The position numbers and the translations under genes are program-made. Below, piece by piece: positions 1 to 60,331 of a DNA stretch of 64,000 nucleotides. The stretch spans positions 7,256,001 through 7,320,000 of the forward strand of contig NC_087250.1 of NCBI RefSeq assembly GCF_037042905.1, written 5' to 3'. The stretch comes from Lytechinus pictus. Its lineage: Eukaryota. Under the pieces are notes generated by a model. The model was not told where the DNA came from. It saw nothing but the letters and a program-made list of their open reading frames with translations, and did not search any database. The first letter of the stretch is position 1; every line of letters begins with the position of its first letter.

Positions 1-1111
1 TTCGACTAATCTTGATCACGGAACGAATACTGATACTAAGAAGAGCCCTCCAGTTCCAGATGTAAGGGTTAGGAAAAGCAGCACCCATTCCCAGATGGAT
101 AATGCCATACATAATCCTGAACATGACAGTGGACACCTTGGTCTTACTGGAGAGCTGTCAAATTACGATACCAACCCTGAACTCCTCAAGGTTTTCCACA
201 TCAAGGATCACTATGAGACGGTGTCTTCTCAAGGGTCACGTCGAACTTCCATCGCTTCAGACGAGGAAGCAGTGCGGGAACATCTAAGTTTGATTCTGAA
301 CAAACCGGACAGCGGGAGTGATGCGAATGAAGACCAAGGTGGTAGCAACATGAGAGGACAGTCTGGTGAAGATTCACCAGGACAAAGAAGAGAGCCGAAG
401 GGTAATGTCCTCAAGAAGAAGCCACCCTTACCAAAACTACTCCATCAGCATCAGATCCAGTCTTCCAGACGGCCCAGCCCAAGGCGAGCCAGTGAACCAA
501 ACTTACCACCTCCTGATGCTGACAGTACCTCCTTTTCTGTAACTCCCATCAAGAAACTTGAACAGAAGAGAGAAGAGAACAAGTCTCAAGTTTCAACAAT
601 AAAGAACAGTCTTCCAGATAAGAAGTTCAGCCCTCCGTCTTCTTCCACGAAGAAACAGCGTGGCAAATCCCTCGGAGACGTGCCTTCAGATGCCTCGAGC
701 AAAGATCATGGTCCGAGTTCAAGTACCACCAGCCTTCCCATCAAGTCCTCGATCATTGAGGAAGATGGTCACCAAGATTCTGCTGATGAAGATTGGGTCG
801 AGGAGGAAGAGCCTCTTGCCAGACACGTCCAGACGCTGACGGAGAAGACACTCCAGGAATTCGAAACCATTGCTCAATCTGTTGATACCGCCACAACCTC
901 TGTTATCCACACCCGACCTCCATCATCAGCCGGTGGGCAGTCCATCCATACCGCCAGGAGCTCTATCAGGAGTGTCTCTCCTAGCCCTAGGGTGAGGGAT
1001 GTCATCAATGTGCAAGGAGGTGACCAGGAAGAAAGAGAGTTCTTGAATCAGAGCATCGCGCTCTCTGAAACAAGCAGTGAGGTCTTCAGGGATTTCAACG
1101 ATACCGGAGAG
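1..1111 (+). CDS. MAP3K19: MAP3K19-like kinase, large low-complexity exon (5' end outside window)
   Basis: Frame is open from base 2 through ORF 95..1195 and is Ser/Pro/Glu-rich. Donor GAG|gtaggt at 1111/1112 is phase 0, matching the next exon. Confidence 0.85.
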
Positions 1112-2401
1112 GTAGGTACAGACCCTGGGGCCATTTCAGATAGAGTTACAACTGTGGCAACCTTGCCCTTATTGTTACTCCCATGGAAACTTTGATTGCG
1201 ATTTATTGCTGAACCCTGTTACCAATGTAGTTATTGTAGTGGCAAAGCAACAACAGTTGTAAGTCTTTTATGAAATGGGCCCCTGTATCTTAACTAATCT
1301 CTTAATAAGACTTTGAAACATAGAAATTGATATCTTCCAATGTAGCTTAATAATTATTGCTTTAGTAATTGAGTATATGAATTTTAAAAAGGCCCAAGTC
1401 CATAGGAGGTCATTTCGAGAAAAATTGAAAAAAAAATTGATATTTTTTTTAATTTGGGCAATTAAAGTATATTTGACCGAAAGAAAGACATCAGAGAACA
1501 TATAAAACAAATTTAAGTGTACATTTTCATGAACATTAATATTTACGTTACTTGTGGGCGGGGCCTTTTGTCTGATGGACTTGGGTCATTCTTAGAATCA
1601 TATGTACTTGGACCATTCTTACATTCATATACATGGTAGACTTCTGTAGTAAGTAGCAGAAATAATGAGAGAGGGCGCTATGATATGAATGTAAGAATAG
1701 CCCAAGTCCTAGATTACCAGATTTTCCTTCTTTAAGGCATTTCTGAGAACAATTTCCCATATTTAACTCAATTTCGCCAAAAATACTCAATTGTTAATAA
1801 TACACTACAGTCACTGATGGTTCATTCAAGATTGCATCCTTGCAGATTTTTCTCTTGAAAGGATATTTTCTAACAGCATGTTTCAGACCTATCATACTAT
1901 TTGTTTTAGGGCAGCATTGCTAGTCTTCAACAATTTATTTTGAAGTGCTTAGGTAGCCAAGAAAATCAACATTACTGATTGATTATACATTGTGTCACTA
2001 ACATTTCAGTGTCAATCCACAGTGTTTCATAAAAAAGTTTGTATATTTCTAGAGTTTTTAAACAGCCAAAATGCATCAGTGTCTTAGTCTTATAGTGTAA
2101 AACTTTGGTTTTAAAAAATGAGTGTTTGTAACACCCAGGATTCATATTATCATTCAGTATTATAAGTACCATTTTTCATCTGAGCAAGAGCTCCACAGTA
2201 TCAAACTAGAGTGTTTATATTATACAGAGTGTTTTGAACAGCCAAGAGCACCAATCATAGTTTTAGCGCTAACACCAGAACATCTACTTTGAGTGTTGTG
2301 TTTATGTTATACAGAGTGTTTCAAACAGCCAAGAGTGCCAATCATAGTTTTGGTGCTAACACCACAATGTCTACATTGAGTGTTGTCTTTCTGTTATACA
2401 G

Positions 2402-2557
2402 AGTGTTATAAACAGTCAGGATACATCGGTGTCATCCAGCATGATAAGTAGCACCGATCGTAGTCTTAGCGCTAACACCACAGTGTCAGAGTCTGAGGGG
2501 ACTGAACTCCTCCATTGGAAGAAAGGCAACCTGCTCGGGAAAGGAGCATTTGGGACG
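2402..2557 (+). CDS. MAP3K19: MAP3K19-like exon, start of kinase domain (Gly-rich loop)
   Basis: Acceptor ttatacag|, donor |gtgagc, 156 nt. Encodes SVINSQ...HWKKGNLLGKGAFGT. Confidence 0.93.
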
Positions 2558-3217
2558 GTGAGCCCAATTATTTTTTCTTTCTCATTCAATGCATGATTCA
2601 TAATAAAACAGAAATGAGACAGAAAGAAAAAGAAATTATGTCTCATTTCTTACAACATGTGACCATTTATTTCAAATCACTTCTCTTTACCACTTCCAAA
2701 CCAGTTTCTTCCAAGCCCAATCTTTCCATGAGCTCATTTAAGAACTTTTTTTTAGATATTTTAACCCTAGAAGGACTGGGGAGCATAATGGCCCCCCTCA
2801 GCGATAAAAAAAGATAGCACCTCAAAATTTTATGAGTTTTTTCCTTGAAGTCTCGTGCAACTTTGGAGACCAAATTTGTGACCTACAGCGATTGCATCAC
2901 AATCTCACGTGCCTTTTTATGAGACAATGTCATGCTGAAAATGGCACATTTTTACACTATGTGTACAATGTCTCTGGGAGATGAAATTCATAAAAGGGTG
3001 ATTATTTTTCATTCTAAATTAATTTAGGGTTTAAATTTTCATTCTAAATTAATTTAGGATTTAATTTTGTTTTTAAATGATCTGTAATAATTTCCATTGA
3101 AAAAAAACCTCAACATAACTCTTTTTGTAAGACGGGGCCCAGGTATCTGAGCCATATATTATTGCTGATCTGATGCAGGCCTTATAAACCTTGCCTTTTA
3201 TTCTCATATTCTTGTAG

Positions 3218-3369
3218 GTATACTGTGGGCTAACAAACACCGGTCAGCTGTTAGCCGTGAAGCAGGTCGAGCTCAGCGAGAGAGATAAGGAGAAAGCCAA
3301 ACAACAGTATCAGAAACTACAAGAAGAAGTACAACTTCTAAAGACGCTTTGTCACAAGAACATTGTTGG
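3218..3369 (+). CDS. MAP3K19: MAP3K19-like exon (AVK lysine, helix C)
   Basis: cttgtag| ... |gtaagt. Encodes VYCGLTNTGQLLAVKQVEL...KLQEEVQLLKTLCHKNIVG, closely resembling the MAP3K19 VYCGLT-GQL-AVKQV segment as recalled. Confidence 0.95.
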
Positions 3370-3820
3370 GTAAGTGGAAACAGGCCCCATATGATAAAGC
3401 AATACATTTGATTGGTTGTGTTTATACGACTGAAACTACCAGAAGTACCACTTCTAAAGACACTTTGTCACAAGAACATTGTTGGGTAATAAAAAACAGG
3501 CCCTATTTTCACGTGGTTAAACAAGTTTACATGTAGTTTTATGGTTGTGTTTATACTTCTGAAACTACAGGAAGAAGTATAACTTCTAGAAGTATAACTT
3601 CTTAAGACACTGTCACAAGAACTTTGTTGGGATAATGGAAACAGAATCTATTTTTGTGTAGTAAAGCAGATGCAGTTGAGTGGTTGTGTTTATACTCATG
3701 AAACTACAGGAAGAAGTATAACTTTTTAAGACACTTTTGTCACAAAATCATTGTTTGGTTAATGGAAATAGGCCCCATTTTCATGCGATAAAGAATATAC
3801 AACTGAGTGGTTGTGTTTGT
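3312..3820 (+). repeat. ~120-140-bp degenerate tandem repeat of the exon 3' end plus donor
   Basis: gaaactaca..gaagta..acttct.aagac...tgtcacaagaac.ttgttggg..aa.gga.acagg occurs 4 times. Confidence 0.9.
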
Positions 3821-4377
3821 ACTGTATTAGAATGCTATTTCTTTAGGTGGGCAAGGTATGTTGTCACAGGAGATATTAATGGTCACTTTGATATACAATA
3901 CTTTTTAATGTTAAATTATGACGATGATGATGCTGGTGACAGCGATGATGATAATAATGGCAATGATGACGAAATAGTAATTTAATATGAAAATGATGGT
4001 GATGTTGATGATGATAATGATGATAATAAATGGTAATGATGATGATAATGATGCTGATGATGATCACAATGATGATAATGATGAAAATGCCAATTATGAT
4101 AATGATGATGATGTTGATGCCAATGATGATGATGGTGATGATGATGATGACAATGATGATTATGATGTGAATGACAATTATTTTGATAAAAAAACTACGT
4201 GTATAGCAAAGATTGTGGTGATGGTGATGATGGCAATAACGACGATGAGGGTAATGACAATAATGTTGATAGTGATTTTCGTGTCAATGAGATAATATAA
4301 TGACAAAGATTATGTAATTATATTATGACATCTATGCTATCAATGACGTATAAATTGATATATTTTCGTCAACCTAG

Positions 4378-4557
4378 CTTCCTGGGAGTGTCTTTAGAAG
4401 AGAACATGGTCAATATCTTCATGCAGTTCATCCCTGGAGGATCTATCGCATCACTTCTGGCTAGGTTTGGATCCCTAGATGAAACTGTCTTCTGTCGTTA
4501 CACCAAACAGATCCTAGAAGGCACTCAGTACTTACATGAGAATGATGTCATACACAG
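4378..4557 (+). CDS. MAP3K19: MAP3K19-like exon (hinge region to H-R)
   Basis: aacctag| ... |gttagt, phase 2-2. Encodes FLGVSLEENMVNIFMQFIPGGSIASLLARFG...YLHENDVIHR. Confidence 0.95.
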
Positions 4558-4999
4558 GTTAGTATAGTATCTACAATGATACCACTTGCCATTTATTGCA
4601 TTGAAAATGTACAGAGTAAGAAAAGTGGATAGTTTTCAATAGAAACCAGGTAATTGATCTCCTGGCTAGGTTGGATCCCTAGATGAAACTGTCTTCTGCC
4701 GTTACACCAAACAGATCCTAGAAGGCACTCAGTACTTATATGAGAATAATGTCATACATAGGTTTTACTATCATACTTCTTGTCAGTCATTGCATTGAGA
4801 ATGTACAGAGCATGAAATGTGGATAATTTTCACAAGAAACCAGGCTGTTAATATCTTGGCTAGGTCTGGATCTCTCGATGAATTTGTCAGCTGCAACACT
4901 CGGACGTGCCTGACAGGGATGTTTCTCTGCTGAGCAAGTCCTGTGACGCGGGAGTAAAACATTTGTCAGATGTGATTGCGTTTATATGTTAGTCATTTT

Positions 5000-5038
5000 G
5001 CCTCCGACGAAGATTCTGCTATGATCGAAAGCTTAGGC
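5000..5038 (+). ncRNA. Minimal type I hammerhead-like motif (Penelope-like element remnant), U4C variant
   Basis: GCCT-CCGACGA-A-GAT..ATC-GAAA-GC-TT-AGGC: stem I GCCT/AGGC, stem II GAT/ATC, palindromic stem III AGCT. Confidence 0.45.
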
Positions 5039-5206
5039 CCCTTTTGACTTTCCAATCACAACTCTGTGTAAGTCGGGGCCCAGATCAATCTAGTCAGGAG
5101 GTACTCAAATCATTGTGAAGGACGCCTGAAAAGTGAAATTCGCGAAAGATAACGTCATCATGAAATATTTTCAAACACTATTCTATTTGCCTCTTGCTCT
5201 TCACAG

Positions 5207-5398
5207 GGACATCAAAGGAGCCAACATCATGTTGATGTCGACGGGGGTGATCAAGCTCATTGACTTTGGTTGTGCTAAGCGTCTATGTATCCAGATCAGT
5301 CGCAGTCAGAATGTACTCAAATCAATGCGAGGGACACCGTACTGGATGGCGCCCGAGGTCATCATGGAGACGGGACATGGGAAGAAATCAGATATATG
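5207..5398 (+). CDS. MAP3K19: MAP3K19-like exon (catalytic loop, DFG, APE)
   Basis: tcacag| ... |gtgagt. Encodes DIKGANIMLMSTGVIKLIDFGCAKRL...GTPYWMAPEVIMETGHGKKSDIW. Confidence 0.97.
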
Positions 5399-5584
5399 GT
5401 GAGTATGTCCGTCTTAACCACTGAGATAAAAAAGCTGGATAGACCAACAACCTGCTCTTTTGAGACCACTTGAAACACTTAAAAGTACTCCAAAAGGTCA
5501 AGCGTGTACTAAGGTCCTTTTTTTTTTTGTGTGTGTGTGTGTGTGTTGTTTCTTTTGTGTTGGTATAGTCCCATATACTGTTAA

Positions 5585-6167
5585 AGGAGAATGAAACCCT
5601 TGAAACCAGCTGAATCCATATCAAAGAGAAAAATCAAAGAAACATATTGTTGAAAGTTTGAGGAAGATTGAATGAATAATAAGAAAGTTATGAGCATTTG
5701 AATATTGCAATCATTAATGCCATGTAGATCCTCCCATCGGCAATGCGACCAAGATCTGTGATATCACACACGTACAACTCCCTCATTACTTTAGTACTTA
5801 TTTCACTTATATTCTCACTTTTATAGAATCTATCACAAGGTGAGGTGTTCTCTTTATGATATGACAAGTACAGAGGTTTCACAACATTATATCATTGATG
5901 AATCGTTTGTCATATGATTACAATGAGCAAAAATAGATGTTTTGGGGTATATTTTCAGTGTCCAAATGGGAGAGTTGTACGTGTGTGACATCACAGATCT
6001 TGGTCGCATTGCCAATGGGAGTATCTCCATAGCATTAGTGATCTCGACATTCAAATGCTCATAACTCTTTTATTGCTAGTCCTATTTTACTCAAAATTTT
6101 GTTGATCTTATTCTTTGATTTTTCTGCTTTCACAAAAGCTAACTTGCTCCAAGAGTTTCATTCTCCT
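5585..6167. mobile_element. Non-autonomous DNA transposon, TTAA-flanked (Kolobok/piggyBac-like)
   Basis: ttaa|aggagaatgaaac ... gtttcattctcct|ttaa, with long internal inverted arms. Confidence 0.8.
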
Positions 6168-6370
6168 TTAATTGTGTCATGGAGTACTTTTCCTTTAGCT
6201 TCAAGGTGTCATGTGCGGTAGCATACAATAAGCTCTATCCATTTTTTTCATATCTATGGTCTGAACCCACAGAGGTACATTGGTTGTACAGTATTTGAGA
6301 TGTTCTTTGTGTGGTTTTTGAGTCATTACCCTTGTGATCAACTTCCGTGATTCTTTTCCTTTCTCTGTAG

Positions 6371-6535
6371 GTCCATTGGTTGTACAGTGTTTGAGATGGC
6401 GACCCGTAAGCCCCCTTGGTCTGACATGCCTCCCATGGCGGCCATCTTTGCCATCGGTTCCGGTGGCCCCGTTCCTCAGATGCCAGACAAGTTCTCTGAA
6501 GATGCGAAGACCTTTGTCAATGCTTGCCTAACAAG
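6371..6535 (+). CDS. MAP3K19: MAP3K19-like exon (subdomains IX-XI)
   Basis: ctctgtag| ... |gtaaga. Encodes SIGCTVFEMATRKPPWSDMPPMAAIFAIGSGG...FVNACLTR. Confidence 0.95.
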
Positions 6536-7010
6536 GTAAGACTGTTATAGTATAAGATGCAAATACCTTTTTTAATGCTTGCCTTACAAGATAACCATTA
6601 CAGTATAAGATGTGAAGACCTTTGTCAATGCTTGAATTACAAGGTAAGACCGTTATAGTATAAGATCTGAAAACCTTTATCAATGCTTGCCTTACAAGGT
6701 AAGACCGTTATAGTATAAGATCTGAAAACCTTTGTCAATGCTTGCCTTACAAGGTAAGACCCATTACAGTATAAGATGCGAAGACATTTGTCAATGCTTG
6801 CCTTTCAAGATAAGACCCATTTCAGTATAAGATGCGAAGACATTTGTCAATGCTTGCTTTACAAGGTAAGACCGTTACAGTATAAGACGCAAATGCCTTT
6901 TTCAATGCTTGCCTTACAATATGACTATTACAGTATAAGATGCAAAGACCTCTGTCAATGCTTGCCTTACAAGGTAAGACCCATTACAGTTTGTGATGAA
7001 AATACCTTTT
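6499..7010 (+). repeat. ~55-bp tandem repeat made of the exon 3' end plus donor site
   Basis: About 9 copies of aagatgcgaagacctttgtcaatgcttgccttacaaggtaagaccgttatagtat. More decayed copies at ~7290-7430. Confidence 0.95.
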
Positions 7011-7017
7011 TGTAAGA

Positions 7018-7207
7018 CCTGGAGGCCGTTTCATAAAGCTGATCGTAAGTTAAGAGCGACTTTAAGAACGACTGGTGATCCTTTCTTGTGGTAAGTGACG
7101 GTTCACCATTATGTTCATTAGTGATTATTTAGCGCATAAGAAAGGTTCACCAGTCGTTCTTAAAGTCGCTCTTAACTTACGAACAGCTTTATGAAACACC
7201 CACCAGA
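7018..7207. mobile_element. MITE family A (other copies ~16970-17140, 17662-17830, 18998-19228, 58781-58967)
   Basis: Inverted arms gtttcataaagctg.tcgtaagttaagagcgactttaagaacgactggtga and their reverse complement, repeated five times in the window. Confidence 0.9.
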
Positions 7208-7892
7208 GGTTTGGCTCATTAATATGTATCTGGTTTTTTTTTTAGTTTGTAATTTCTTGATTGTGTTATTTTGCCAAATAAATTGAATTGAGATGAATGC
7301 TTGCCTTACAAGATACGTCCATTGTCGTATATGATGTAAAGACCTTTTGTATAGTTTGTATTACTAGATAAGGCTGTTATAGTATAAGATGTAAATACCT
7401 TTGTTAATGCTTGCCTTATAAGTGAAGACCATTATGATGTACCTGTGTTTCTAGCATCATCAATTCCTATCGATTCTTGATGATTAAAGTGAGAATTTAT
7501 GCTGAGGTAAAGTCGGTTTTAATAATCAAAGCTGCAGCCAACCTGTAGCAATCAATTCTAATTAGGAGATATGTTATTGTCTTAGTGCTTAATGCTTCAA
7601 AACCTCTTCCAGCCTTCATCTCAGGTGTGAACTGCATCTGTTCTTTCTTTTTATTTCAGGTTGGTAAAAATGTGTTGATGTCTTTTGAGTATATGTATCA
7701 CATTCTGTTCCAAGAAAAAGTCTTTGATCTCTAAACTTTGGTCCAAGACTTTTCCTTGTGATGTATTAAGTCTTGCTCTACCTATCTTGGCTTTTGGTTT
7801 ATTATCAAGGAAAAGTCTTGAATACCACTGTGACACTGTCCATTATGAAGTTAGATACATTATTATTACACATCTTTACATTAATTTTGCAG

Positions 7893-8100
7893 GAATCAAG
7901 ATGAACGAGCTACAGCCTCAGAACTCCTCAAGCACCCCTTTATAAAGAGAAGGAAAGAAAGAGGGAGGGAACACTATCAGAGCAGGATATCCTCAACATC
8001 TCTGGAAGACGGCCCAATCGTCTTCAGGGAACAACCTATCTCAAGGGACTCGGCAGAGAGCAAAGGAAGAAGGAACTATGCCATGCAGGATTTCCGCTGA
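7893..8100 (+). CDS. MAP3K19: MAP3K19-like terminal coding exon
   Basis: ttttgcag| then NQDERATASELLKHPFIKRR...MQDFR, stop TGA at 8098-8100. Confidence 0.92.
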
Positions 8101-10653
8101 ACGAGCGATTGCTGCAGTAGAAGTGCTTGCGGAATCAGTCTCAGAGATAGTGATATTCTGGTAGTCACTTGAGATAAGTTTGTGTCGTTGCGCTCTACCT
8201 GTCAAGCAGAGGTAGAAGCACGCTGTGGGCAATTGCTGCAGGAAAAAGTGCTTGAGGAATACATCTCAGAGACATGTATTGTGTGGTCACCTGAGACAGG
8301 TCTGTGCTTCGGCATTCTTACACCACCAAGTGGAGCAAGAATTATGTTGAGTGTGAGTTTCGTTTGTGAAGCAATTGAATTGAGGCACAATGTTTTCAAC
8401 ATTCCTTATTATAACCAGAGTGTGAGGAACTGCATCTTTCTTGAGTTCCATTGATGAAGAGACCATAGGTCATTCAATGAGTTCTGGAAGATTTCTTTCA
8501 TTCTGGGAAAGGATTGTACAGACAAATGTGCGAAGGACTTATCGGCACGTTCTTGTGGAAAGAGCTGTGCTGGAAACACCAATGTTAATTATGTATATGA
8601 ATTTATGAAGTAAAGGAAGCGGGGTCGTTGCAGAAACCAAGGCTGAATTAAATTTTTCCCTGCAAGAAGTATGTTGGTAGAGCCATTGCTGCGTTGACAA
8701 TCACCTGTAAGAATCACCCTGTCACAACTTAATAATTAAGGTGCAGCTGATGACAACAAAGGAGAAGACCAGTGCTTAGGGGAAATGCTTCTGGTAATTG
8801 AGACACCTATTCAAATTGTAGAACCTTTTCTTTGGAAGGGTATTGCTTCAAATTTCATCATGTTTAAATGAAAATGCACAGAAATTCAGAAACTCGTGGC
8901 AGTTTCAGAATCAATTTCTCCATTATGGTCATGAACCTATTACTGTAATGACATTTCACATGTACAATCATTGACAATGTTGATGAATTTTGTAGTTAAA
9001 GCATCTACCATTCCACATAAGTTTGAGGTTCAGCCCTTACCATATGTTGTCACTGAACCTGATATCTTTTCCTTTGTATTTCAAATAATCATGCTGTGGA
9101 AATCAAATGTATTCAGAACCTTGGTATATGCATGGACTTGTTTTATAAACTTTTCTGAGCTATGTGTAGTATTGGCTTCATCAAGGCTAGATTGCACATA
9201 TTTCTGTATTGGAGAATATATATTTTCCTGTAAATGATGCATTTTCTAGCTCTTATCATGTATTCCAATTGCCTGGCTACTATTATATTCAAATCATTCG
9301 TGATTCATGTCAGTGGGCAACAGGATAGATAGATTGTCAGTAATGGGAACTTGTACCTCTAAACTTGGGGATGTTGCACAAAAGGTCAAGATTGACTTAA
9401 AATCATGCTTAAATGCGACATGCACATTATATGAAACACACAATCTTATTGATTACTATACAGTAGGGCATGTCCTCTGAGTTGACCAATGAGGCAATGT
9501 CTTCTATACCGCATGCAACTGGAAATTTAAGTGCGACTCTAAGTCAAGCTTATGTCTTTGTGAAACACCCCCCTGGACAGTGTGGTTGAGCACTTTGCCA
9601 CCTGATTGAATCAATCTTATCTCATGTTATTAATTGAAGGATAACATCCTTGCTCTGCATTGCTACATGTACACTATCAACAAAGAAACTAATTTCTCGC
9701 CAAAAGTAGAGTTACAAGTTTCCAGATCAATCACCTACATAATGCCTTGATCGAAAACATAAACTAATTCAGACAGTATTCTATCGCAATAATCATGCCT
9801 TTTGTGATTTAACTTCTGGTATTTTCTGGAGTTTCCGTCCATTTTCTATTCCATTTTTTATGATGCCTTTGACGTTACGTACAACGATTTCCATCTGTGG
9901 TGACAATCATGTGAATTTTGCTAATATTTAATGTTCAATGTTACTTGCTTTTTCAATGCAGTGCTTACCCATCTACTAAAGTGAGTGTGAAATGGGTCCA
10001 AGTGATTGGGCTTTGTCAATAGGAAGCCTATTCCCATTTAAAGTTTTAAAATGATTTACATGTTGGTGTGACGATTTGGTTCTATTTTCGCACATTTCCG
10101 TCAATCCTATTTTGTGCCTTTTCGTGCTTTTAATGTTGAATGTCGCAATTGCGGATGTAGATGACATAGAAAAGTTACTTTCCACAAATGGCGGATGTAG
10201 ATGACACAGAAAAGTTACTTTCCTTAATGTTCTGTAGTTCCTAATCTACAGGAATTTAGAATGGTAATGTACAAACTGCTATAAGTGTTTGCTTTCTATA
10301 GACAATAGACAATAGGTAGTTTTTCGCATTTACTACGGGGAAATTCTCTACAATGCATCGATTCCTTTAAAAATGCAATGAAAATCACATTGGAGAGCCG
10401 AGAGGCTTTCATCAAAAGTTGGAGGACTGGGACAGATAATCCAAAGATTTGCTCCGGAAGAGCAATCACTAATATGCCGTTGTCCCGAGTCAAGAGATTC
10501 CAATGCTGTCCCGGTCCACCAACTTTAGAAAAAAGCCTCTCAGCTCTATATTGTGATTTTATTTGCATTTTCAAAGGAATTGGTGTGTACATTGTAGATA
10601 GTTTCCTCCAAGGAAGTGCGAAAAGTCTGGATTAATTCATAAATATGGTTTAA

Positions 10654-16630: not shown

Positions 16631-19036
16631 GGGTGTTATGACTGGGTGATGCAAGAACACAGTAAATTTATTGAAAATGCCCGTCGAATGACAAAGAACA
16701 GCTGGGAGGTCTTTGCCGGAAAAATTGGTCAATCAAAACAGCAGTTTCGTCCTTGACTCTGGACAAACGACAATTTTTTCTTTAGCTCAGAAACGTTCCT
16801 GCTCCCTATAACTTTCGACAAAGACCTCCAAGCTGGTCTTTGTCATTTACCCGGCATTTTTAATAGATTTATTGTGTTCTTGAATCCGTCATGTGTCATG
16901 GAGTGCAAACAAGTGAATAATACAATGAAGTAATGAACATTTTATGGGCTTTCTCTTTTATACCTCTTGTGGCTGTTTCATAAAGCTGTTCGTAAAGTTA
17001 CGCACAACGTTACGCACGACTGGAACATGTTCTTAGGTTATAAATCTATTACATAGGGATATCCCATAGCACAAGAAAGGATCACCAATCATGCGTAAAG
17101 TCGTTCGTATCTTACAAACAGCTTTATGAAACACCCACCAGGGACCCGTTGCAGAAAGAGTTGCAATCAAACGCAACTCAAAAAATCTTGCTCAACTTTA
17201 CAAATTTTAGAGTGACTTGTTCCAGGCACAATTGACCAGGCACAAATACCCCCCCCCCCCATGCCTGTGTGATTGACTGTGTGGTGTGGATGTGTTTGTT
17301 TTTGCTTCGTTACTCTGTTTAAACGCTTTTTTATCATCTTCTTTGTGTACACAATCTACTAAATTTTTGTTCCTGGGGGGAACATTTAACCCACAAGCTT
17401 CGCTTTTTAGTTCCCCCTTTTTCCTCATCTACTATATTATTGTACATGAATTATGAAATGCATTTTTTTTTCTGCTCTCTTTATGTATGTAAATATTTAA
17501 TGACTAGAAATGCATTTATAATGTTATGTGTTGTAAATATGAATTTGATTTTTTACTGATATGGAAATAAAGACATTGAACTTGAACTTGATTTTCAGCC
17601 AATGAAGCACCCGTATTCGGGACTTAAGCTTGAAGGCAACTCTTTCTGTAACAGGCCCCAGGTGGGTGTTCAATTAAGCTACGCGTAAGTTACGAGCGAT
17701 TTTACGAACGACTGGTGATCCTTTCTTAGGCATAATCAACCATTTTTGTGCACATAGTTTACCACAAGATAGGATACAGTCGTTCTTAAAGTCTCTCGTA
17801 AATTTAAAACAATTCTATGAAGCATACACCTGTTTTAACAAATATTTCTTGGCATAGGCGAAGAGAGGTTGTTTCATGTGTTCATATACGAACGGGGATG
17901 CGGCAGTGTCGCAAATAATTAAGTTTACAAAGGCTATATGTTACACACAATGTAATTTATTGAAGCGGATTAAATTATAATATTAAATATGGCTTTGTAT
18001 AGCGCAGCTTTTATATGAATACATTCAGCTGCGCTAATTCAGAGATTTTTTTAAAACTTAATTCTGTGTGTACACAAACATTTCTTAATTAAAGAAATAT
18101 GTTTTCAATTTCGATTTGAAGATAGTAAGTGATACATCAAAATTGATACATTTTCTCAATTTAGCCTCTAATTTTAGATACGATATCTAAAAATGATGAA
18201 TTGATTGCCATTGAATAGTGCTGTTCATTTCTTTATTTTTAAAATCAAAATCACAACACAAATTATATAGTACTATATCATTTTCAAAGTTAATACAAAG
18301 CTCTTTTACAAAGAGGCCTACTGTTATTAAAACAATAAATCAATGAAACGAAATTACAAGAATGACAAATATGAATTAAGAAATCTTAATCCTTACACTC
18401 CATTCTTAATAGTTGATGAGTATAACTAAGATGATCTCTCGTAAAATGGACTAGAAAGTCCATTTTACAAAGTCGAGTCGTTACAATCAATCTTATTGAA
18501 ACATATTTCAAATAGAGTAAACACACTCAAGACACTAGCATAAAAAAAACAAATTTTTTGTCTCGTCTGCATTGCAAAAGCGAGACATATAATAAGCGCC
18601 ACTTTTCCGACGGCAAAAGCGTTGTCAACATTGAATTTGAACTTTGATCGAGGAGTTACCTATTTTGATTAAACCTTTACAGACGGTACCATACTAATTA
18701 CTCTATAGTAGCGGTACCCTATTTCGCAATTTATTGTCACTCATCATTTGACAGGAAATTCGGAGAGCATTTCATGAAACTGTTAGCTATAGAAATCCTT
18801 TCATCTGATTGGCTCAGGACTAATTAGTTTATGATTATCAGTGACTATTTGCTTCATGAAACAGCCCCCTGGAAATCGCTAAATACCAATAACCAATCAA
18901 GATCATCGTTGCATGCGCACTCTGTTTAAAATACTGAGCGGGAACCAATCAGCGCGGTTCTTTCATATTTACAATTCATTGCAAACCTTTACGAAGCCCT
19001 GGTGGGTGTTCCATAAAGCTGTTCGTAAGTTAAGAG

Positions 19037-19082: not shown

Positions 19083-21289
19083 GTTAAGAGCGACTTTAAG
19101 AACGACTGGTGAACCTTTCTTCGCGCTTAACCATCGCCAATGAATATACCATTTACCACAAAAAAGGATCACCAGTCGTTCTTAAAGTCACTCTTAACTT
19201 ACGAACAGCTTTATGAAACGGCCCCCTGGTTTCAAATTCAGAAATCACGTTGGGGGCAAGAATACATAAAATGCTTTTAAAAAATTAAGCGAGCGAACGA
19301 AGCAATTGAGTTTCTTCTGAGAGTATGTTTTTTTTTATTAAAAAATTCCACTAAAAGGTGCACCAGATCGTTCTATTTTTATTTATTAAATAAATAAAAA
19401 TAGAACGACCTGGTGCACCTTTAAGTGGAATTTTATGGAAACTCTTTTTTTTCTTCACAAATTGTACTCGCTACGTATATGGCATTCAAAATTTCAGGTA
19501 AACAAACCTAGAGATTCTGTAGGATCGACATCAAAATCTAAACCAAAACACAAATTAAATATTTTGATATTCAGTTGACGATTTTATAAATATCATTACT
19601 AATTCCATAAAACTTGGATTGCACATAATTGAAATCAATTGTCAATGTTTAAATCAATTTCAGTTCAATTGATCAAGGTCAAAGGTTATTTCAGGTGGTC
19701 TTGGATAAACATAAATACGACATTTTCTCTAAAGTGAGGAAATCCAATGAAATTTGCAAAACTAAATGTCACACACGAAATGAATTAGACGTTACCAACA
19801 GTCGACATGGTCGATGCAAAATATTTTGTTGGTTATTAACTAAGGTTATTTATGTCATGAACTCTTCTCGTATTTTAAAAATACTTTTCATATTACATGA
19901 AAAATGTATGAGTATCCAATACAAAATAAATCAATGTGAAACAATATGATTTTAGTTCACAATTCCGAGGTCAGACGTCATAAAATTTTACCTATAATGC
20001 ATGGTTGGTATTTTAAATCAAAAGTAAATCCATACAAATTTGGGCATGCAAATTCATCATACCCAGATCGCGATTTCTTCCGTCAGGACTTTTGCACCCG
20101 TGACGAGAGGACTGTTTCGGAAGCTTTTAGTAATCGAATTACAAATCTGGAAATTGTATTTTTTTTTTTCTTTGAAATGTCGTTCTAGGCGAGACTCGAG
20201 TCGGCGTCCATGAACTCGATTGTAGGATTGGCGTACTGATTGAGCAACACCAATCGAAGTGTTCGATTGATCGAAAATTACGCTACTATATCCTGACGTT
20301 TCATGTCGTCGTGAATATTCATGAGGCGTAGTCTGAATAAATAAACCTGTTATATCGTCACTCCCATAGACTTATTCATGAAAAGTTGCGGCTAGTGTTC
20401 CTGTATTAGGAACACTAGTTCCGGCTGCGGTATACTGCCCTCTCGCGTCGGGTGCACAAATACTGATGGGGATAAAATCGCCCCCGGGCGAATGCTTAAT
20501 AAACAAAAAGGTTACAAAATGTTACTACATTTTACTGTCACCAATACCTCAGTCACATTTACCCTTAGGCCGCCGTACGGCGAGTCGAAAACAGCCGTAG
20601 AGGAAATGTGGCAGTGGTATGAACAAACACTAGTCTGCCGTCTCTATACGTGTTGAATTACATAATGCAGGCAAGACCATGTTACGTCACATTTGGGTAA
20701 ATTACCCCAAAAAGGGGATTTACCAAAAATATGCCGTAACTATGTTCAAGATTTTGGTAACTGCACGTCCCCTGCCTTCTATCCATGGGCGGAGTTCACA
20801 GGGGGGGGGGGCGTGTCCCCCTACCAAAAATAGTAGGGGGACCCAATATCAAATTCCCCCCTACTATTTTTGGTCTTTTATTATGAAGAAAAATACACAT
20901 CACTTCACAATAATAATACATGTATTTTGATATTTTTGACCTATCATTTTTCGGTGAAAACCATTTTTTTTTGCTTGTCAAAGTTTCCAGGCCCTGGTCC
21001 CCCTACCTTTGGGGACAGATTTCGGCCCATGCTTCTATCTAATCGTTTGTTGAATGAAACATGTAGTCATCTATGACAATGAAATATGAATTTTTTAATA
21101 CATACAAAAGGTTTTAGCTGCATCTATACCTGGAAAGCAAAGTTATTATAATAAAATATAAAATCATTTCATTAAAACGGCACCGTTGCACATTCATATC
21201 TGTATGCCAGTGTGGCTAACTGATGGGTAAGAGGGCCGGGAGTCGTTGGTAAGGGGGGGGGGGGGTAGAGCTAAAAGAGGATATGGAAG

Positions 21290-22060: not shown

Positions 22061-22897
22061 CTACATTATAAAAAAAAACACGAAATTTCAATAAGGCCTT
22101 ATCTACTGAAAATAATAGGATAAAACATTAAAGTGATATGATAAGAAAATTCCGATTGACGCATATATTCTTTTTTTAATGTGAGCGCCGTTAAAAATCA
22201 ATCAACAACAACAATATCAAATGAAATAATAATTTTCGACGTTTTCTTCACATGATAACCCATATCGCTTATATATTCGGTTAGTAAAAGAACTCAATAT
22301 TTTTTAAAACAATTTAGATACATGTATGTACAAACTAAACTGTTCCGAAGAACTTAATTTATTTTTCATCGGATGTTTTGCTTCTAATCAGTCTTTTAAA
22401 ACTCACAGATTTTTCATATCCTTCATTTTTCTTTCTTTTCTCATCTATTTTTGTCTTTTCTTGCTGTTATCATTATCATCATCGTCGTCCATCACCATTA
22501 CAGTCGCTCTCATCTTCACTATCTTAATCACCATTATCATTATCATCATCAGTATCATCATCGTCGTCGTCACCGCCATTACCATTATCATTACAATCAC
22601 TCTCATCTTCACTATCTTAATTACCGTCGTCGATCTTCACCATCATCATCACCACCGCCATCATAATCGCCATCATCATGATCATCTTCATTGTCCCCAC
22701 GTTCAACATCATTAATGTCATAGTCATAATTATTATGATATGTCCAATATCACAAGCAAACACCACCACCACCATCACCACCACCGCCACCATCACCACC
22801 TTCATTTACTTATTCCAATTTCTAAAAATACATCGCTTCACAGATCATGATTATCGGTTACCATGGTAACCTTCATTTATCATCCAATAACCCATAC

Positions 22898-27418: not shown

Positions 27419-27774
27419 TGATTTCAAGATCACCAACGCATGCAAGGAAATTGCCTTAGCTTCTACGATGGGGGCGCAATGGCGTCAATGTATACACTGT
27501 AAAATCTGTGGTGTTAAAACTGACACCAGTCGGTGTCTATAGAGTACCACACCCTGAGGTGTTAAATTTACACCCTAGAAATTGAACATAGCACCAAAGA
27601 GTGTAAATATAACAACCAAACGTGTTGTAATAACACCTATAGGTGTTAAACTAACACTGTCAATTTAACACCGGAGTAAAATAACTGGTGTGGTCCTCTC
27701 TGTACACCGCTTAACACCAAATCTTTTGCTGTGCAGGAGGTTCATACGAGAGGACGTGACAGAAGAAGCATTAA

Positions 27775-28153
27775 AGGTATTGTTTAACTTTGTGAGCTGC
27801 CGATTTAAAAAAATTCTCAAACCAAGATGAAACATGTGTACAAGTGCATGTATTAGAACTAATAAACCCTGAAAACAACCATTATTGAGAATGAAAAGCT
27901 AAAACTACAAGGCAAACCCCGATTTTGTAAATATGCGTCTTATAGACGCCTAAATAATACACATAAATGTATAGGATGAAAATAAGATGGTGTTTTTGGT
28001 CACTTTATATTTCAATTTTTGAAGCACTAAATAATTATTTTCGAACGCAATTTTTTCTGGGCTTCATTTTTGTAACATATCACAGACACAGGTGACAAGT
28101 GTGATCTTCTAGCTCAGATTTTTTTAAAGTCAAATCAATGTTAACCAATCACT
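27775..28153. mobile_element. TTAA-flanked non-autonomous element
   Basis: ttaa|aggtattgtttaac ... gttaaccaatcact|ttaa. A related copy lies inverted at ~62350-62745. Confidence 0.75.
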
Positions 28154-28170
28154 TTAATGGAACTAATTAC

Positions 28171-28344
28171 CACTGATTTGGCACAATTTGGGATCACGGA
28201 CCAATACTTCCCCGGCTGGCAGTACGAATACCAATCATAATAGGAATATGTTTGTAATTCCCAGATGGCGGCGAAGATGTGCATTTCAAACAGAGCGAAC
28301 CCCATCACGCAGCCAACAATAGACAGAGCCATGTAGGTCCGTAC
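28171..28344 (-). CDS. MS4A-like gene A exon 4 (TM3 and extracellular loop)
   Basis: acacag|VRTYMALSIVGCVMGFALFEMHIFAAIWELQTYSYYDWYSYCQPGKYWSVIPNCAKSV|gtaatt, 174 nt. Confidence 0.9.
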
Positions 28345-29810
28345 CTGTGTTGGAGGCAAGTCGATCGATGATTAATTTCAAATTCAAATTCAATTCAAAT
28401 TTATTTATTTCACTTCCATCAAACAAAAACAAATTGTATACCATATATAAATATTTGTATCCGTTGCAAAAAAAATTTAATAATACACATGTTGTGAAAA
28501 AAAAACACAGTTTGGGCAACACATTGTAGGTTTTAAATATGTATGCTATTTTTCAATAGAAATTAAATTAAGATGGAAATGGAGGGACCCACTTAAAAAC
28601 AATGCTTGCACAATGTGGGCCCCTCAAAAAATAGATAACACAACAAATAACAAAATAACAAAGTACAAATACAGATATATGTAATCAAATGAGAAAAAGA
28701 ATGAATGAAAGAGAAATAATACTCACAAAATAAATACGAAGTTATCAAAAAATATAGTTTGAAGATAATTACCCGGGGGGGGGTCAAATATATTGCTGTA
28801 CACATGCGTGACCAAAAAAAAAACGCGTTTAAAGGGGTATTTTTTTTTCTTCAGTTTTGGACGCGTGCCGCGCGTGCACTCGTTAAGGGTATCAAAAACA
28901 CCAATTTTCAAGAAAAAGGGTGGTTTTGATAAACTGGTCAATCGCGGGGTCAAACGTATTTGGGGTATGATTTTTTTTCCAAAGCTTTTTTTTTTAAGAC
29001 TAGCCAACCATGTTTAGGGTATGTTTTTTCTCTAAGCTTTTTCCCCGAGGTCATATTCTGGCGACAACTAATTGTTTAGGGGCCAAATTGTGTAAATATA
29101 GCCGGCACAAAGAGAACAAACTCTTTAGGGGGAGTTTGGAAATAATCTGGTCACGCATGTGTACAGTAATACATTTGACTGCCCCCCCCCCCCCGGGGCC
29201 GGATAATTCAATTTCAGTTTTAGTAACGAATCTGAATGAGTTTGTGAAGTATCCAGTAAAATTACCAATCAAGTTTTTGCATGTATCTGAATAAACAATA
29301 TGTGCAAAAAGGAGTCTGCAAGAAATTGTGCAAATGCTGCACTCTTTAAAACAGAGAGTAAAAATTTACCCGATATTGGGTAAAAAGGGAACGTGCACTT
29401 TTGCTAGGTAATTTTTTCCTCCAATATTAATGGGCAAAATGCATGTTTAAAGGGTTAATTTCATGGCAACATTGCGTAAAATTTACAAAATATTTGGTAT
29501 CTCTATGCTCAACAAGCATGCATGTTTCCATTTTACCCAATATTGGGTAAACCTTTTTTTTTTAGAGTGTGAGAAATTAGAAAAATAAGCAAGACATTTC
29601 AGCATTTTGTCGGGTCTTTTGCCAAGCAATAATAATACATTGTCCCTCGTGTGCTTATCCGTGTTGGTGATCTTTCAGTGTTATTTTCTTTCGGCTTGGA
29701 ATTCAATGATGATTTTTCAAAGTTCAGTTTATGTCCTGTACCAGATACAGATATAATAAAAAAGTGACAATTAACCTTTGATTCACAAACTTTATCATGA
29801 ACTCGGTGTT

Positions 29811-30090
29811 GATAATAATAATATAGGACTTGTATAGCGCACGTATTCACCTTGCTAGGTGCTCATGGCGCTCCTATATTACCCCGGCTAAGCTAGTCTA
29901 TCGATTCTGGTGCGCACAGCTTTTTGAGGAATTACTTCCTGCCGGTACCCATTTACCTCACCTGGGTCGAGTGCAGCACAGTGTGGATAAATTTCTTGCT
30001 GAAAGGAAAACACGCCATGGCTAGGATTCGAACCCACGACCCTCTGTAGGTTGAAAGGCGAGAGCCAGAACCACTAGACCACGGCGCGCC
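29811..30090 (-). mobile_element. Full-length tRNA-derived SINE with L2-like tail
   Basis: Minus strand: gggcgcgccgtggtctagtgg (A box), ggttcgaatcc (B box), core cacccaggtgaggtaaatgggtacc-like, tail gcgctatacaa..(att)n. Confidence 0.88.
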
Positions 30091-30828
30091 CACAACTATG
30101 TTCATCCATCTTAATAAAAGGAAGAGAAAACAGACATTTCTTATGAAATTTTATTTGAGATCTCTATTATTTTGATAAATGGAATCACTATTAAAAGATA
30201 AAGCCTTTGGCACATTGCCTTAACGTGTTTCATAAGCCAGACTAAAGCTTAAAGGGGGTTTTCATAATATAATTTTTTTGAAAGGGTTGTCGGCTTAGGC
30301 GGCTAAGCACTTCCAGAAGGGGATTTTTGCTCCACGGGGCATGACGGGTTCAAGAAGATGGAAAATGTATTGTCAAATGTTGTTCATGACAATGAATAAC
30401 CAAAAAAGTCTTTGTCGACAACTGGTGAAAACACAGTAGTTTTCTTCCTGTACTGTGGACATGTAACGACATATTTGCAATTGTTGGTCGGCTTTGAAAT
30501 GTGAGACAAAATTGCTGTTTCCCGGCCGTGATGATTATTTTCGACAAAGACCTCCCAGTTGTTCATTTTCATTTAAAGGGCATTTTCAATACATTTACTG
30601 TGTTCCTGAATCCGTTGTGCACAGTAGCGCGAAAACTCCGTATTCTCTTTCCTCAAACCTAGTGCTTTGCTCGCTGTCTAACCCTTTTCCTGTTTACTCC
30701 AAACTAATGCCCTCAGCAAGATCTTCTGAATTCTTTCATCTTTCTACCAAAGTAGACCTACGCTAGCTTTCTGATGTACGTACAAACATTAAAAAAATGA
30801 TAATTTTCAAGAAAGAAAGACTGGTTAC

Positions 30829-30888
30829 CAAACACTTGTAGCCGTTGGAAGCTGCAGATATTCCTATCACTCCAGTTGTTCCAAAAAC
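30829..30888 (-). CDS. MS4A-like gene A exon 3 (end of TM2)
   Basis: ataacag|VFGTTGVIGISAASNGYKCL|gtaacc, 60 nt. Not in the ORF track; conserved at 61529-61588. Confidence 0.9.
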
Positions 30889-31059
30889 CTGTTATATGAG
30901 AACAGTCAGCGTAAACATAATTAAGAATGACTGATTAGATGGAATTGTACGGAAGGGGGCCGTCTGCTTTCTCAGACGTTCAACCTTTGAGAATGGAGAA
31001 TGGTATTAATTATATTTTATGTTATGCAGGGCCCGCCTGAAAATCAGCTAATCAAGAGT

Positions 31060-31360
31060 ATTATTATCAATATTGTTATTATTATTGTTGTCCTTATTAT
31101 TATTATTATTATTATTATTGTTATCATCATCATCATCATCATAATTGTTATTATCATTATCATTATTATCATTTATTTTATTGTATTATTATTATTATTA
31201 TTATAATCATTGTTATTATCATCATCATTATTATCATCATCAGTCTTAGTAGTAGTAGTAGTAGTAATAGCAGTAGTAGTAGTAGAAGTAGTAGCAGTAG
31301 TAGTAGCAGAAGTAGTAGTAGTCGTGATAGTTAGAATCGGAAGTAGTAGTAGAAGCAGTT

Positions 31361-31427
<67 letters not shown>

Positions 31428-31440
31428 AAGTAGTTAGTAG
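31060..31440. repeat. (ATT/ATC)n and (TAG)n microsatellite
   Basis: Directly visible; starts at the gene A exon 2 donor. Confidence 0.95.
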
Positions 31441-31446
31441 TATTAC

Positions 31447-31563
31447 CACAATTCCACTCCAAATAGCCGTAGCAAAATAGGACCAACGGGCCATGAGGAT
31501 GATAGCTACTATTCCGAAGACAACAAGAAGACATCCTCCTATCAGTTGCAAGATGGCTGTTCG
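31447..31563 (-). CDS. MS4A-like gene A exon 2 (TM1, start of TM2)
   Basis: ctttcag|RTAILQLIGGCLLVVFGIVAIILMARWSYFATAIWSGIV|gtaata, 117 nt, phase 0. Confidence 0.92.
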
Positions 31564-32089
31564 CTGAAAGAATAATGAATCCATCAATATCAATTAATAG
31601 GTGGATAGAGCCAGGGGCGTCGCTAGGAAAAACAGAGTAATTATGTCAATGACTCTGAAATGGTCAATCCTTTCGATTATTTTATTTATTTTATCTATTC
31701 AACATATCTGCAATTCATTTTGTTTATTTCAATTGATGCCATTTATGTTATACATGTATATATTTACATATTGTGTTTTTAATAATCGGAAAATAAATAA
31801 ACAAACAAGGTCTTTACCAGGAGGGGTGTGGAGGCCCTGATTAACGACAAATATCAGTACTGATTACCGACTTTCGGCGACCATGAATCTTGTTCTCGCT
31901 TTACATTCTCCTTAATCACATTTTCTTTCGTCTTGCCCAGGAGCAGTTCCAGCATTCATCAAAAACATTTTTTCAGCATTTTCCCCGTCGCCGCCGCCAA
32001 ATTCTCATTTTGTTTTGAAGGGTTAGCCGTAACAAAATTTTCATTCTTAGAAGCAAGATGAAGTTTTCATGTGGCCTGGATATAAATTA

Positions 32090-33760
32090 CAATGCGGGCG
32101 TGAAGCGCGAGCTCAAATATTTGGATATTTTATATCTTTGGACCTGAAAATTGAATATTGTGACCACTTTTGTAATCATAAACTAACTAAACTAACTAAG
32201 TAAACGATCAATGCTAGCGCAAAGCGAGACCTGAATTTTTTAATTATACTGGCCAGCAAAACGACTTGTTAGAGTCTGTTCGCAGTGATCCATGAAAAAA
32301 TACATTTCTAATTCACAAATTGCGAGCAAGAACTTCCAGCTAAAAAAGATATGTTTCGACCTGAAAACCCGATTATAACTATAAAGAGGATGGATATATT
32401 ACTCAATCGATGCGATCGCGAAGTGCGAGCTGAAAATTATAATTTCCGAACAAAAAACTGGACATTCTAAGCACTTTTTGTAAGAATCAAATGCGTATAT
32501 AACCAAGCAATTCATGCTAGCGCGTGCTAAAACTTTTACTTAACTGTTCTGAAAAGGGATATGTTGATTAACTGTTTGCAGTGACTCATTATTAGAATAC
32601 ATTCCTCACTTATCAAATAGAGCGAGCGCAAAGTGCGAGCTGAAAAATTGATATTTCGACCTGAAAACTCGATTGTAACCATGAAGATAATGGATATATT
32701 AACCAAACAATGATGCGAGCGCGAAGCGCGAGCTGAAAAAATAATGATTTCCTACCAGAAAACTGAGCATTCTAAGCAATTTTTGCATGAATAATATGCG
32801 TATTTAGCGAGCGCTAGCTGCTACTTTTAATCAACTGTTCTGAAAAGGGATATGTTGATTAACTGTTTGCAGTGACTCATTATTAGAATACATTCCTCAC
32901 TTATCAAATAGAGCGAGCGCAAAGTGCGAGCTGAAAAATTGATATTTCGACCTGAAAACTCGATTGTAACCATGAAGATAATGGATATATTAACCAAACA
33001 ATGATGCGAGCGCGAAGCGCGAGCTGAAAAAAAAATGATTTCCTACCAGAAAACTTAGCATTCTAAGCAATTTTTCCATGAATAATATGCGTATTTAGCG
33101 AGCGCTAGCTGCTACTTTTATTCAACTTTTCTGAAAAAGGAAATGTTAATTAATTGTTTGCAGTGACTAACTTTCTCACTAATCAAATAGAGCGAGCACA
33201 AAGCGCGAGCTGAAAATTTTTGAGATATTGGACCTGAAATTGGACTGGTTAACCACATTTCTTTTTAAAATGAAGAACACAGTAAACAAGCGCGAAGCGC
33301 GAGCTGAATTTTTGCAGATTTAGAATTATAAAGAGGACATCCAATTTAACTATAAAGAGGGTGGATATTAACCAAACGGTTGATGCGAGTGCAAAACGCG
33401 AACTGAATCTTATTATTTCCTACTAGAAAACTGGACATTCTAAGCACTTTTTGCATGAATATATGCGTATATAAAAATGCATGCGAGCGAGCTGAAACTT
33501 TTAATTAACTGTTTTCGAAATTGATAGAATACATTCCCCACTAATCAAACAGAGCGAGTGCAATGCGCGAGCCCCACCCCCCCCAAAAAAGAAATGCAAG
33601 ATGAAAACTGGACGGGGTAAGCACGTTTTTAATAAAGAACACAAAACAATCGTGAAGCGCGAGTGAATTTTCAATCAGGTCTAGCACTAAAAACAGAACA
33701 CTCGAAGCAATGTCACCATGAAGAGGGTAGGCATAGTTGCGAGCGCGAAGCGCGAGCTAA
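32090..33760 (+). repeat. Repeat array with recurring gcgagcgcgaagcgcgagctgaaa motif and a near-perfect ~291-bp duplication
   Basis: 32542-32832 is almost identical to 32833-33123. The motif occurs reversed at ~37830-38430. Confidence 0.85.
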
Positions 33761-34172
33761 TAATAAGCCAGTTCGTAGTTCCACTCTGCACATGAATAGA
33801 AGATTCTGCGCATGATCAGAGGAAGGGCATTGGTACGAAAGTGACATAGTTGTTTAAAATTTAATGAGATGAGCACAGACTTTGATGTCTTGATTATCAT
33901 AATATTCTTTTGAATTGTGTTTTTCATTCACATCCACTGAAAACAACAATGTGTCCACGAACGACTGGTATTTCAAAGTTTGCCAAGTACATTGTACAAC
34001 ATGCTATAGTATAATATTTGGTTATTAGTTTTGAATATTAGACGCTAAACATGCAAAATAAAACCAAACAAAACCAAATCTGGCATGGAATTAATGAGAA
34101 ATAATCGTTCGAGTTAATACTTAAATCTTTCGAGTTAATACTCAAATCTTTCGAGTTAATACCGGATCCCAC

Positions 34173-34277
34173 CTTAATTTTGGTCAGATAAGCTGTGTGG
34201 TACGATTGGCATGATTGGTTGGGCTCGGGCATGCCATATACATAGGCCGCTGGTGGTGGTGGTTGGTTTGACGTCAT
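34173..34277 (-). CDS. MS4A/CD20-like tetraspan gene A, coding exon 1
   Basis: MTSNQPPPPAAYVYGMPEPNQSCQSYHTAYLTKIK|gtggga. In-frame TAA two codons before ATG. The exon acceptor is at 34364. Paralogous to 57305-57388. Confidence 0.85.
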
Positions 34278-41935: not shown

Positions 41936-42289
41936 ATTAAAGCCCTTTTTTATTTGGGAGATCTTTTTTTTTCTTGAAAAAAATTGTGACAAGGAAAAGA
42001 ATTCAACAAATTTGCGACTTTCCCCGTCGAAAGAAGTTTTTTGAAAGCCCCCCCCCCCTCCCGCAGTACTCACTCTATGTTTTAGTTGGCCGGTTTTCTT
42101 TGTGAGCCCTGCTAAATGTGGGAATTCTCGATTATAAACAAATTCATAATTTATACAAATCAATCATTTCTTTGTCGCGTCATTCTATTCGAAATAGATG
42201 GGAAAACACCACAGATGGGAAAATAAGCATAACGATAAACCAATGACAATGGACCAACCCTGTTGCAAAACACAGTATCAGATAATGTG

Positions 42290-60152: not shown

Positions 60153-60212
60153 AAAAAAGCGCGTTAACGCTCTATCCACCTATTGATATTGATGGATTCA
60201 TTATTCTTTCAG

Positions 60213-60329: not shown

Positions 60330-60331
60330 GT

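Follow-up and report, generated by a model that had tools for sequence, protein, structure and literature searches.

Minisatellites whose first monomer spans an exon–intron boundary are known from several human genes. Borensztajn et al. 2006 list a 37-bp unit in 5-9 copies in F7 intron 7, 25 pseudo-sites in intron 2 of IFI6 (6-16), a boundary-spanning minisatellite in CBS intron 13, a 100-bp unit repeated 10-15 times in LMNB2 and an 81-bp unit repeated 16-18 times in PDGF intron 4 (PMC1557585). According to the same paper, the identical pseudo-donors of F7 are functional yet silent, the most upstream donor being chosen by 5′-3′ scanning (PMC1557585). Here we analyse a 64,000-nucleotide stretch of Lytechinus pictus DNA (NC_087250.1, positions 7,256,001-7,320,000 of the forward strand, assembly GCF_037042905.1), hereafter the window, in which a predicted protein kinase gene carries tandem copies of its own exon edges. 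Judged by their sequence, the arrays can each be classed as a boundary-spanning minisatellite or tandem duplication of the F7 type, a kind already known from human genes.

The likeness is closest in three arrays, which we name B, C and E2 after the exons that they adjoin. As in F7-type minisatellites, exon end, authentic donor and intron start are followed by head-to-tail copies carrying pseudo-donors, above all in E2. The mRNA data for the kinase gene fit use of the most upstream donor only. Unlike the F7 type, the locus has arrays at five exon edges of one gene rather than one, two of them on the acceptor side, and its copies are mostly old and decayed, whereas F7-type arrays consist of near-identical, polymorphic variable-number tandem repeat units.

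Two other forms of local duplication invite comparison. Hellsten et al. reportedly described intron gain by tandem duplication (the Rogers model) in 2011. PMC4974935, which cites Gao & Lynch 2009, deals with internal gene duplications that take in part of an exon plus intron, and with intron gain by tandem duplication, a potato RNA-dependent RNA polymerase being a case. That process and the arrays described here have in common a duplicated segment with splice signals that is tolerated as splicing restores the message; the difference is that existing introns have been lengthened here and none created. We rejected intron gain for this locus on structural grounds, as the copies sit inside introns beside their source and the coding sequence is continuous; in no intron of this gene does a duplicated exon segment lie on both sides. 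Tandem exon duplication, or mutually exclusive exons, likewise involves local exon copies, but those found here are partial, carry one splice site each and lead to premature stops, and this candidate too was rejected. An open-access word search brought up no account of a gene with several such arrays and none of an excess at junctions across a genome, which is weak evidence of absence, and the portions seen of two papers on tandem repeats and splicing (PMC10078293 and PMC4039745) hold no data on junction-spanning arrays.

Copies of exon edges in the kinase gene

The 3′ half of the kinase gene occupies window positions 1-8100 on the plus strand and comprises a large exon and six further exons, A-F, all of the latter flanked by AG and GT on inspection. 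Joined in silico at the canonical sites, these exons give a single open frame of 720 codons, with an N-terminal part of at least 370 codons inside the window. In the features below, a slash marks the exon–intron junction.

<1-1111, plus strand: large upstream coding exon that extends beyond the left end of the window; donor GAG/GTAGGT at 1111/1112, open frame 2-1192
2402-2557, plus strand: exon A, Ser/Thr-rich linker and GKGAFG glycine loop, placed by splice motifs and continuous frame
3218-3369, plus strand: exon B, Pkinase profile positions 18-61; its last ~57 bases open array B
4378-4557, plus strand: exon C, Pkinase profile positions 66-121; its last 104 bases open array C
5207-5398, plus strand: exon D, with HRDIKGAN, DFG and APE in that order; Pkinase profile positions 123-180, E 7.8e-16
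6371-6535, plus strand: exon E, Pkinase profile positions 182-244; its last 37 bases open array E2
7893-8100, plus strand: coding part of exon F, with stop codon TGA at 8098-8100

Exons B-E successively cover positions 18-244 of the Pfam protein-kinase profile. Among solved relatives exon D is nearest to MAP3K2 (E 2.7e-15), with PAK and MST kinases next; exon C matched generic protein kinase clusters only in a protein atlas, and the large upstream exon is 75% identical over 370 amino acids to P0001, a 1282-amino-acid protein of a relative. The predicted product is a STE-group MAP3K-type kinase with its C-terminal domain behind a long N-terminal region. The label MAP3K19 (YSK4), given to the gene in an earlier note on this DNA, is compatible with the domain layout and makes the gene a candidate orthologue. 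At the donor of the large upstream exon begins a weak palindrome (64%, window 1108-1302) with high DNA depth, possibly a miniature inverted-repeat transposable element (MITE) inserted a few bases into the intron.

We compared each exon, extended by 60 bp on either side, with both strands of the whole window by self-blastn, and used Tandem Repeats Finder and pairwise alignments alongside. Same-strand partial copies lie less than 900 bp away for five of the six kinase-region exons, with more than 20 self-blastn matches on the same strand within 900 bp of their source exons. The only non-local matches of the six exon queries were two low-complexity ones in a satellite. Because the copies are all local and on the same strand, chance similarity is excluded.

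2051-2401, plus strand: array A, at least four decayed copies of the intron end, the acceptor and the first ~90 bases of exon A
3432-3823, plus strand: array B, three head-to-tail copies of ~125 bp, 75-80% identity
4659-4893, plus strand: array C, copies of the 205-bp unit 4454-4658, one full (4659-4856, 85%) and one partial (4857-4893, 81%)
5080-5126, plus strand: copy D, of the internal exon D stretch 5291-5338, 81% over 48 bases, E 2.7e-6
6273-6302, plus strand: copy E1, matching 6369-6398 (the exon E acceptor with the opening 28 bases of the exon) at 93% over 30 bases, E 1.8e-5
6554-7435, plus strand: array E2, with the 55-bp unit 6499-6553 repeated a further 11 times
8095-8341, plus strand: array F, a ~126-bp tandem duplication in the 3′ untranslated region (3′UTR), two copies, left edge at the stop codon

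All the copies listed by the earlier note were recovered at or within a few bases of where it had placed them; array F was absent from its list. The assertion that almost every kinase exon is shadowed in this way holds for the five exons with copies and fails for the large upstream exon, beside which a local-repeat search found no tandem copies. The unit lengths are, as had been noticed, mutually unrelated (55, about 87-100, about 98, about 125 and about 205 bp), and the exon contributes about 90, 57, 104, 33, 37 and at most 6 bases to the units; this varying share, together with the unrelated lengths, indicates that there is no common breakpoint rule. In arrays A, B, C, E2 and F the copies run head to tail and are contiguous with the exon edge. 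The terminal monomer holds the authentic site, a donor in B, C and E2 and an acceptor in A and E1.

The acceptor-side copies differ in age and number. Array A has two younger copies, at 2289-2375 and 2202-2288 (an 87-bp form, 87%), which Tandem Repeats Finder reports as 2211-2415 with a period of 87, 2.4 copies and 87% matches, and older ones at 2103-2203 (67%) and 2051-2083 (79%). It retains two intact decoy acceptors, from which the first exon base would be 2315 or 2228. Copy E1, whose match extends by eye to 33 exon bases, carries the decoy acceptor CACAG/AGGTAC, for three intact decoy acceptors overall. Copy D is intronic, 81-127 bases upstream of the exon D acceptor. Both D and E1 are single and short, 211 and 98 bases from their sources, and the sequence between source and copy has no recognisable similarity.

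On the donor side, the array B unit consists of the last 57 bases of exon B, the donor and the first ~62 intron bases; its copies, at 3432-3564, 3565-3695 and 3696-3823, hold one fair donor (TGG/GTAATA, exon end at 3485), one weak GT and one lost GT. Array C has a decoy donor, TAG/GTTTTA, at which the exon would end at 4761. The E2 unit joins 37 exon E bases to 18 intron bases, and its copies lie at 6554-6990 and 7296-7435 (Tandem Repeats Finder: period 55, 9.0 copies, 84%, and also period 108). Five of the 11 copies have a donor letter-identical to the authentic site, and the other six lack the GT. A MITE at 7017-7206 splits array E2, which must therefore be older than the insertion. The two units of array F, 8095-8220 and 8221-8341, are 72% identical over 129 columns, rising to 78% between 8105-8184 and 8229-8306. 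The description of independent boundary-straddling duplications, each leaving one intact exon together with decoys (five E2 donors, two exon A acceptors and others), is thus borne out.

Other repeats lie in the same introns. An imperfect (ATG/ATGATG)n tract of ~400 bp at 3880-4290 makes up much of the intron that separates exons B and C, and similar tracts occur at 22470-22880, 31050-31240 and 61090-61340. Between exons D and E, at 5571-6182, is one copy of a ~610-bp element, the other being at 49177-49783, whose halves are inverted repeats (69%) and which has very high read depth. The MITE within E2 belongs to a palindromic family of ~190 bp, with further members at 16962-17141, 17642-17855, 19083-19230 and 58776-58975 and very high depth in four of four sequencing runs.

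Decoy splice sites, RNA and a second organism

We built the message that would result from use of each of 11 decoy sites, and all 11 lead to a premature stop. In the 720-amino-acid frame the stop falls at 380 with either array A acceptor, at 473 with the array B donor, at 535 with the array C donor, at 596 with the E1 acceptor and at 652 with each of the five identical E2 donors. The decoys are therefore not alternative coding exons.

Four sequencing runs were aligned to window positions 1-9500, and depth was recorded in 30 bins of 317 bp. In run X1, which behaves as RNA, a contig (record 2, 1317 nt, depth 26.6) places exons D and F 165 bases apart, which matches the size of exon E. Depths of this run in the bins of exons A, B, C and E are 11.5, 12.8, 9.57 and 13.8, against 11.3, 12.8, 10.0 and 13.8 expected from exon bases/317 x 26.6. 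Depth is 0 in four array-only bins (1903-2219, 3488-3804, 6658-6974 and 7292-7608), and the raw stranded RNA run X21 gives 0-0.09 over array-only bins. Transposon reads dominate the alignments at 2854-3170, 4756-5072, 5390-6340 and 6975-7291. The assembled message fits use of the authentic sites only.

These data bear on whether selection maintains the decoy banks, either as extra U1 or U2AF sites that aid exon definition or as sites of regulated unproductive splicing by which nonsense-mediated decay would reduce kinase output. Such a role would be in keeping with the E2 donors that have stayed identical to the authentic site, with the two intact acceptors upstream of exon A and with the presence of arrays in a second organism (below). 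We nevertheless consider it quite improbable: the GT is lost in six of 11 E2 copies and in one of three in array B, identity of the copies is 67-90% overall, with indels and a MITE, like neutral sequence, and no RNA was seen over the arrays. Moreover, the identical donors lie in a two-unit (108 bp) higher-order repeat, so common descent suffices to explain them.

DNA contigs from organism B (runs X10 and X12), which show a divergence of about 3-7% from the window in the pieces listed, cover all 30 bins, arrays included. One X12 contig follows the window from 4320 to 4665, continues with 29 other letters and then returns to 4514, which means that organism B too has a second copy of the exon C end. 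Array C at least predates the split between the window's source and organism B. The earlier note had also raised the possibility of an assembly artefact, a false tandem duplication arising from collapsed or mis-joined haplotypes. Repeat-rich, polymorphic genomes carry that risk in general, and nothing specific to this locus was found to favour it. The copies are 67-93% identical rather than near-identical, and they contain indels and a MITE; short-read contigs of organism B, from two runs on different samples and in different studies, cover the array bins, and one shows the exon C duplication. An artefact is extremely improbable.

Clustering of the duplications at exon–intron boundaries

We think it likely that six or seven local tandem duplications arose independently of one another, that some of them have grown into minisatellites and that the terminal unit of each is the real exon edge. 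In each case a boundary-spanning segment would have been duplicated head to tail, with replication slippage, unequal exchange or microhomology-mediated repair as the probable step. The copy contiguous with the exon body would go on being spliced, as the most upstream donor or the most downstream acceptor, and the remaining copies would end up in the intron, there to decay, multiply and receive transposon insertions. Any use of a decoy would bring a premature stop, hence only silent arrangements would survive.

The clustering itself is best explained, and probably so, by a high local rate of small duplication, short ancestral introns, a selection filter and a splice-site choice that keeps the copies silent. 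The genome region would generate many tandem duplications of 50-600 bp; ancestral introns would have been about 170-480 bp long, so that most duplications sparing the exons would have to straddle a junction; and selection would remove those confined to an exon or containing an entire one. We judge with similar confidence that most of the clustering is due to short ancestral introns and tolerance, and the duplications themselves would supply a large part of present intron length.

To gauge chance, random duplications of the observed unit lengths were simulated, dropping those that were wholly exonic or held a whole exon. Roughly half of the intron sequence consists of transposons or microsatellite. 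With arrays collapsed and insertions removed, the introns measure 173, 278, 206, 232, 327 and 475 bp, the probability that a tolerated duplication straddles a junction is 0.29-0.77 per array, and the joint probability is 0.03. The element that cuts off a third C copy is apparently younger than array C. The earlier note had proposed a process that generates or tolerates duplications across exon–intron boundaries: tolerance is upheld, as the decoys give stops and only the authentic sites agree with the RNA contig and the depth data, but the joint probability of 0.03 with collapsed introns does not bear out a special generator.

Several observations weigh against this account. With today's introns and transposons kept, which assumes transposons older than the arrays, the simulated probability that all five arrays straddle one junction drops to 0.0009. 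In a uniform tile scan, local direct-repeat clusters number six in 2016-8306 (6.3 kb) and nine in the other ~56 kb, two of the nine being doubtful (one MITE pair, one marginal at E = 0.007); at ~6-fold higher density in the gene, a uniform duplication rate is insufficient. In the kinase gene no array whose unit reaches 50 bp lies entirely within an intron, though some would be expected under the null model. The 3′UTR duplication has its left edge within 5-10 bases of the stop codon, which we estimate to be a 2-4% coincidence if positions were random. Identity in the exon-derived and intron-derived parts of the copies is 0.94 versus 0.73 in array C, 0.85 versus 0.83 in B and 0.86 versus 0.82 in E2, so that a 'frozen exon' asymmetry is clear only in C, and detection bias of that kind, which should produce such an asymmetry, was rejected as the main cause. 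Acceptor-side decoys upstream of the real site fall outside the donor-scanning rule. Finally, run X21 reaches a depth of only 0-2 on exons (0 in the exon B bin), too thin for decoy junctions.

Only one other gene, unrelated to the kinase gene, was recognised in the window, by eye, as two inverted paralogues that resemble a small membrane protein, and it too has a junction-straddling duplication. Among 49 open reading frames chosen outside the kinase gene, no Pfam family scored above cutoff; New_glue, SSP160 and KCH fell below it.

34.3-27.7 kb, minus strand, and 57.3-62.7 kb, plus strand: inverted paralogues of the second gene, recognised by eye
60312-61357, plus strand: tandem duplication in the second gene, period ~593 bp, made up of the final 19 exon bases, GT and (TAC)n

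In this duplication 60312-60904 is repeated as 60905-61357, with a decoy exon end at 60903-60925, and it is confined to the plus-strand copy; the inverted paralogue (31450-31059, minus strand) has one unit only of the exon end and (TAC)n segment. Both paralogues carry a (TAC)n microsatellite of 0.4-1 kb starting 5 bases past the donor of a transmembrane-like exon. At 34103-34162 the minus-strand paralogue has a 21-bp unit repeated 2.9 times, starting 11 bases past the donor of its first coding exon, and the plus-strand paralogue has a single copy of that unit at about 57388-57420. Small tandem duplications are thus a repeated occurrence at donors, or close to them, in this region, and they arose after the paralogues split.

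All this raises the question of a mutational process aimed at exon–intron boundaries, which in this lineage would favour junctions as the place where tandem duplications form, for example through breaks or fork stalling from transcription, co-transcriptional splicing or exon-positioned nucleosomes, followed by microhomology or polymerase-theta-type repair. Of the five arrays with units of 55-205 bp, every one crosses a junction and none lies wholly in an intron (joint P 0.0009-0.03), cluster density in the kinase gene is 6-fold that of the remaining window, and the 3′UTR duplication begins at the stop codon; in the second gene the 593-bp duplication, the (TAC)n array and the 21-bp x2.9 repeat are all at donors. 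Yet the exon share of the units ranges from at most 6 to 104 bases, with no shared motif or distance, donor and acceptor sides are both affected, the lenient null already gives P = 0.03 for a gene chosen post hoc from a very large scan, and a word search of the open-access literature, which cannot prove absence, found no such process reported. We regard a boundary-directed process as unlikely. The broader proposition, that tandem duplications in this lineage arise or persist preferentially at boundaries through transcription- or splicing-linked breakage and repair, so providing a main route of short-intron growth and seeding decoys genome-wide, is doubtful to a like degree.

The arrays might instead stem from a single complex, replication-based rearrangement, in which serial template switching made several duplications together and slippage expanded some later. 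Their intron-derived identities are alike (A 0.83, B 0.83, E2 0.82 and C 0.73, with D at 81% and F at 72%), and all lie inside 6 kb. But every copy sits beside its own source in direct order, with no inversion or shuffling, copy numbers range from 1 to 11, and a younger case of its own is seen, in one paralogue only, in the separate gene 52 kb away. A common event is decidedly improbable, and we retain separate local duplications, filtered by selection, as the preferred reading.

Further repeats of the window and significance

The paralogues of the second gene lie in a large inverted segmental duplication (window 27700-34600 and 57000-62750) with blocks of 70-92% identity, the exon block being best at 92%. 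The first intron of the minus-strand paralogue holds a young tandem array at 32077-33746, with a 291-314 bp unit of up to 98% identity, that is not in the plus-strand paralogue. Elsewhere, at 42271-44258, is a ~2-kb satellite whose 11-bp unit is TTCACAGTGTG-like and which has a higher-order periodicity of about 300 bp; short arrays related to it lie at 41670, 52213 and 52815.

For gene prediction the locus is a caution, as decoy sites could be chosen in place of authentic ones. As it stands, it is a striking cluster of a known phenomenon, but one that can be explained; a true excess at junctions in a genome-wide count of tandem duplications would suggest a mutational process linked to boundaries as well as a way in which introns grow. 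Each array is meanwhile a natural experiment in splice-site choice. In array E2 a real donor stands ahead of five letter-identical decoys, a donor case that agrees with the human F7 model, and at exon A two intact decoy acceptors lie upstream of the real one, an instance of the less studied acceptor case.

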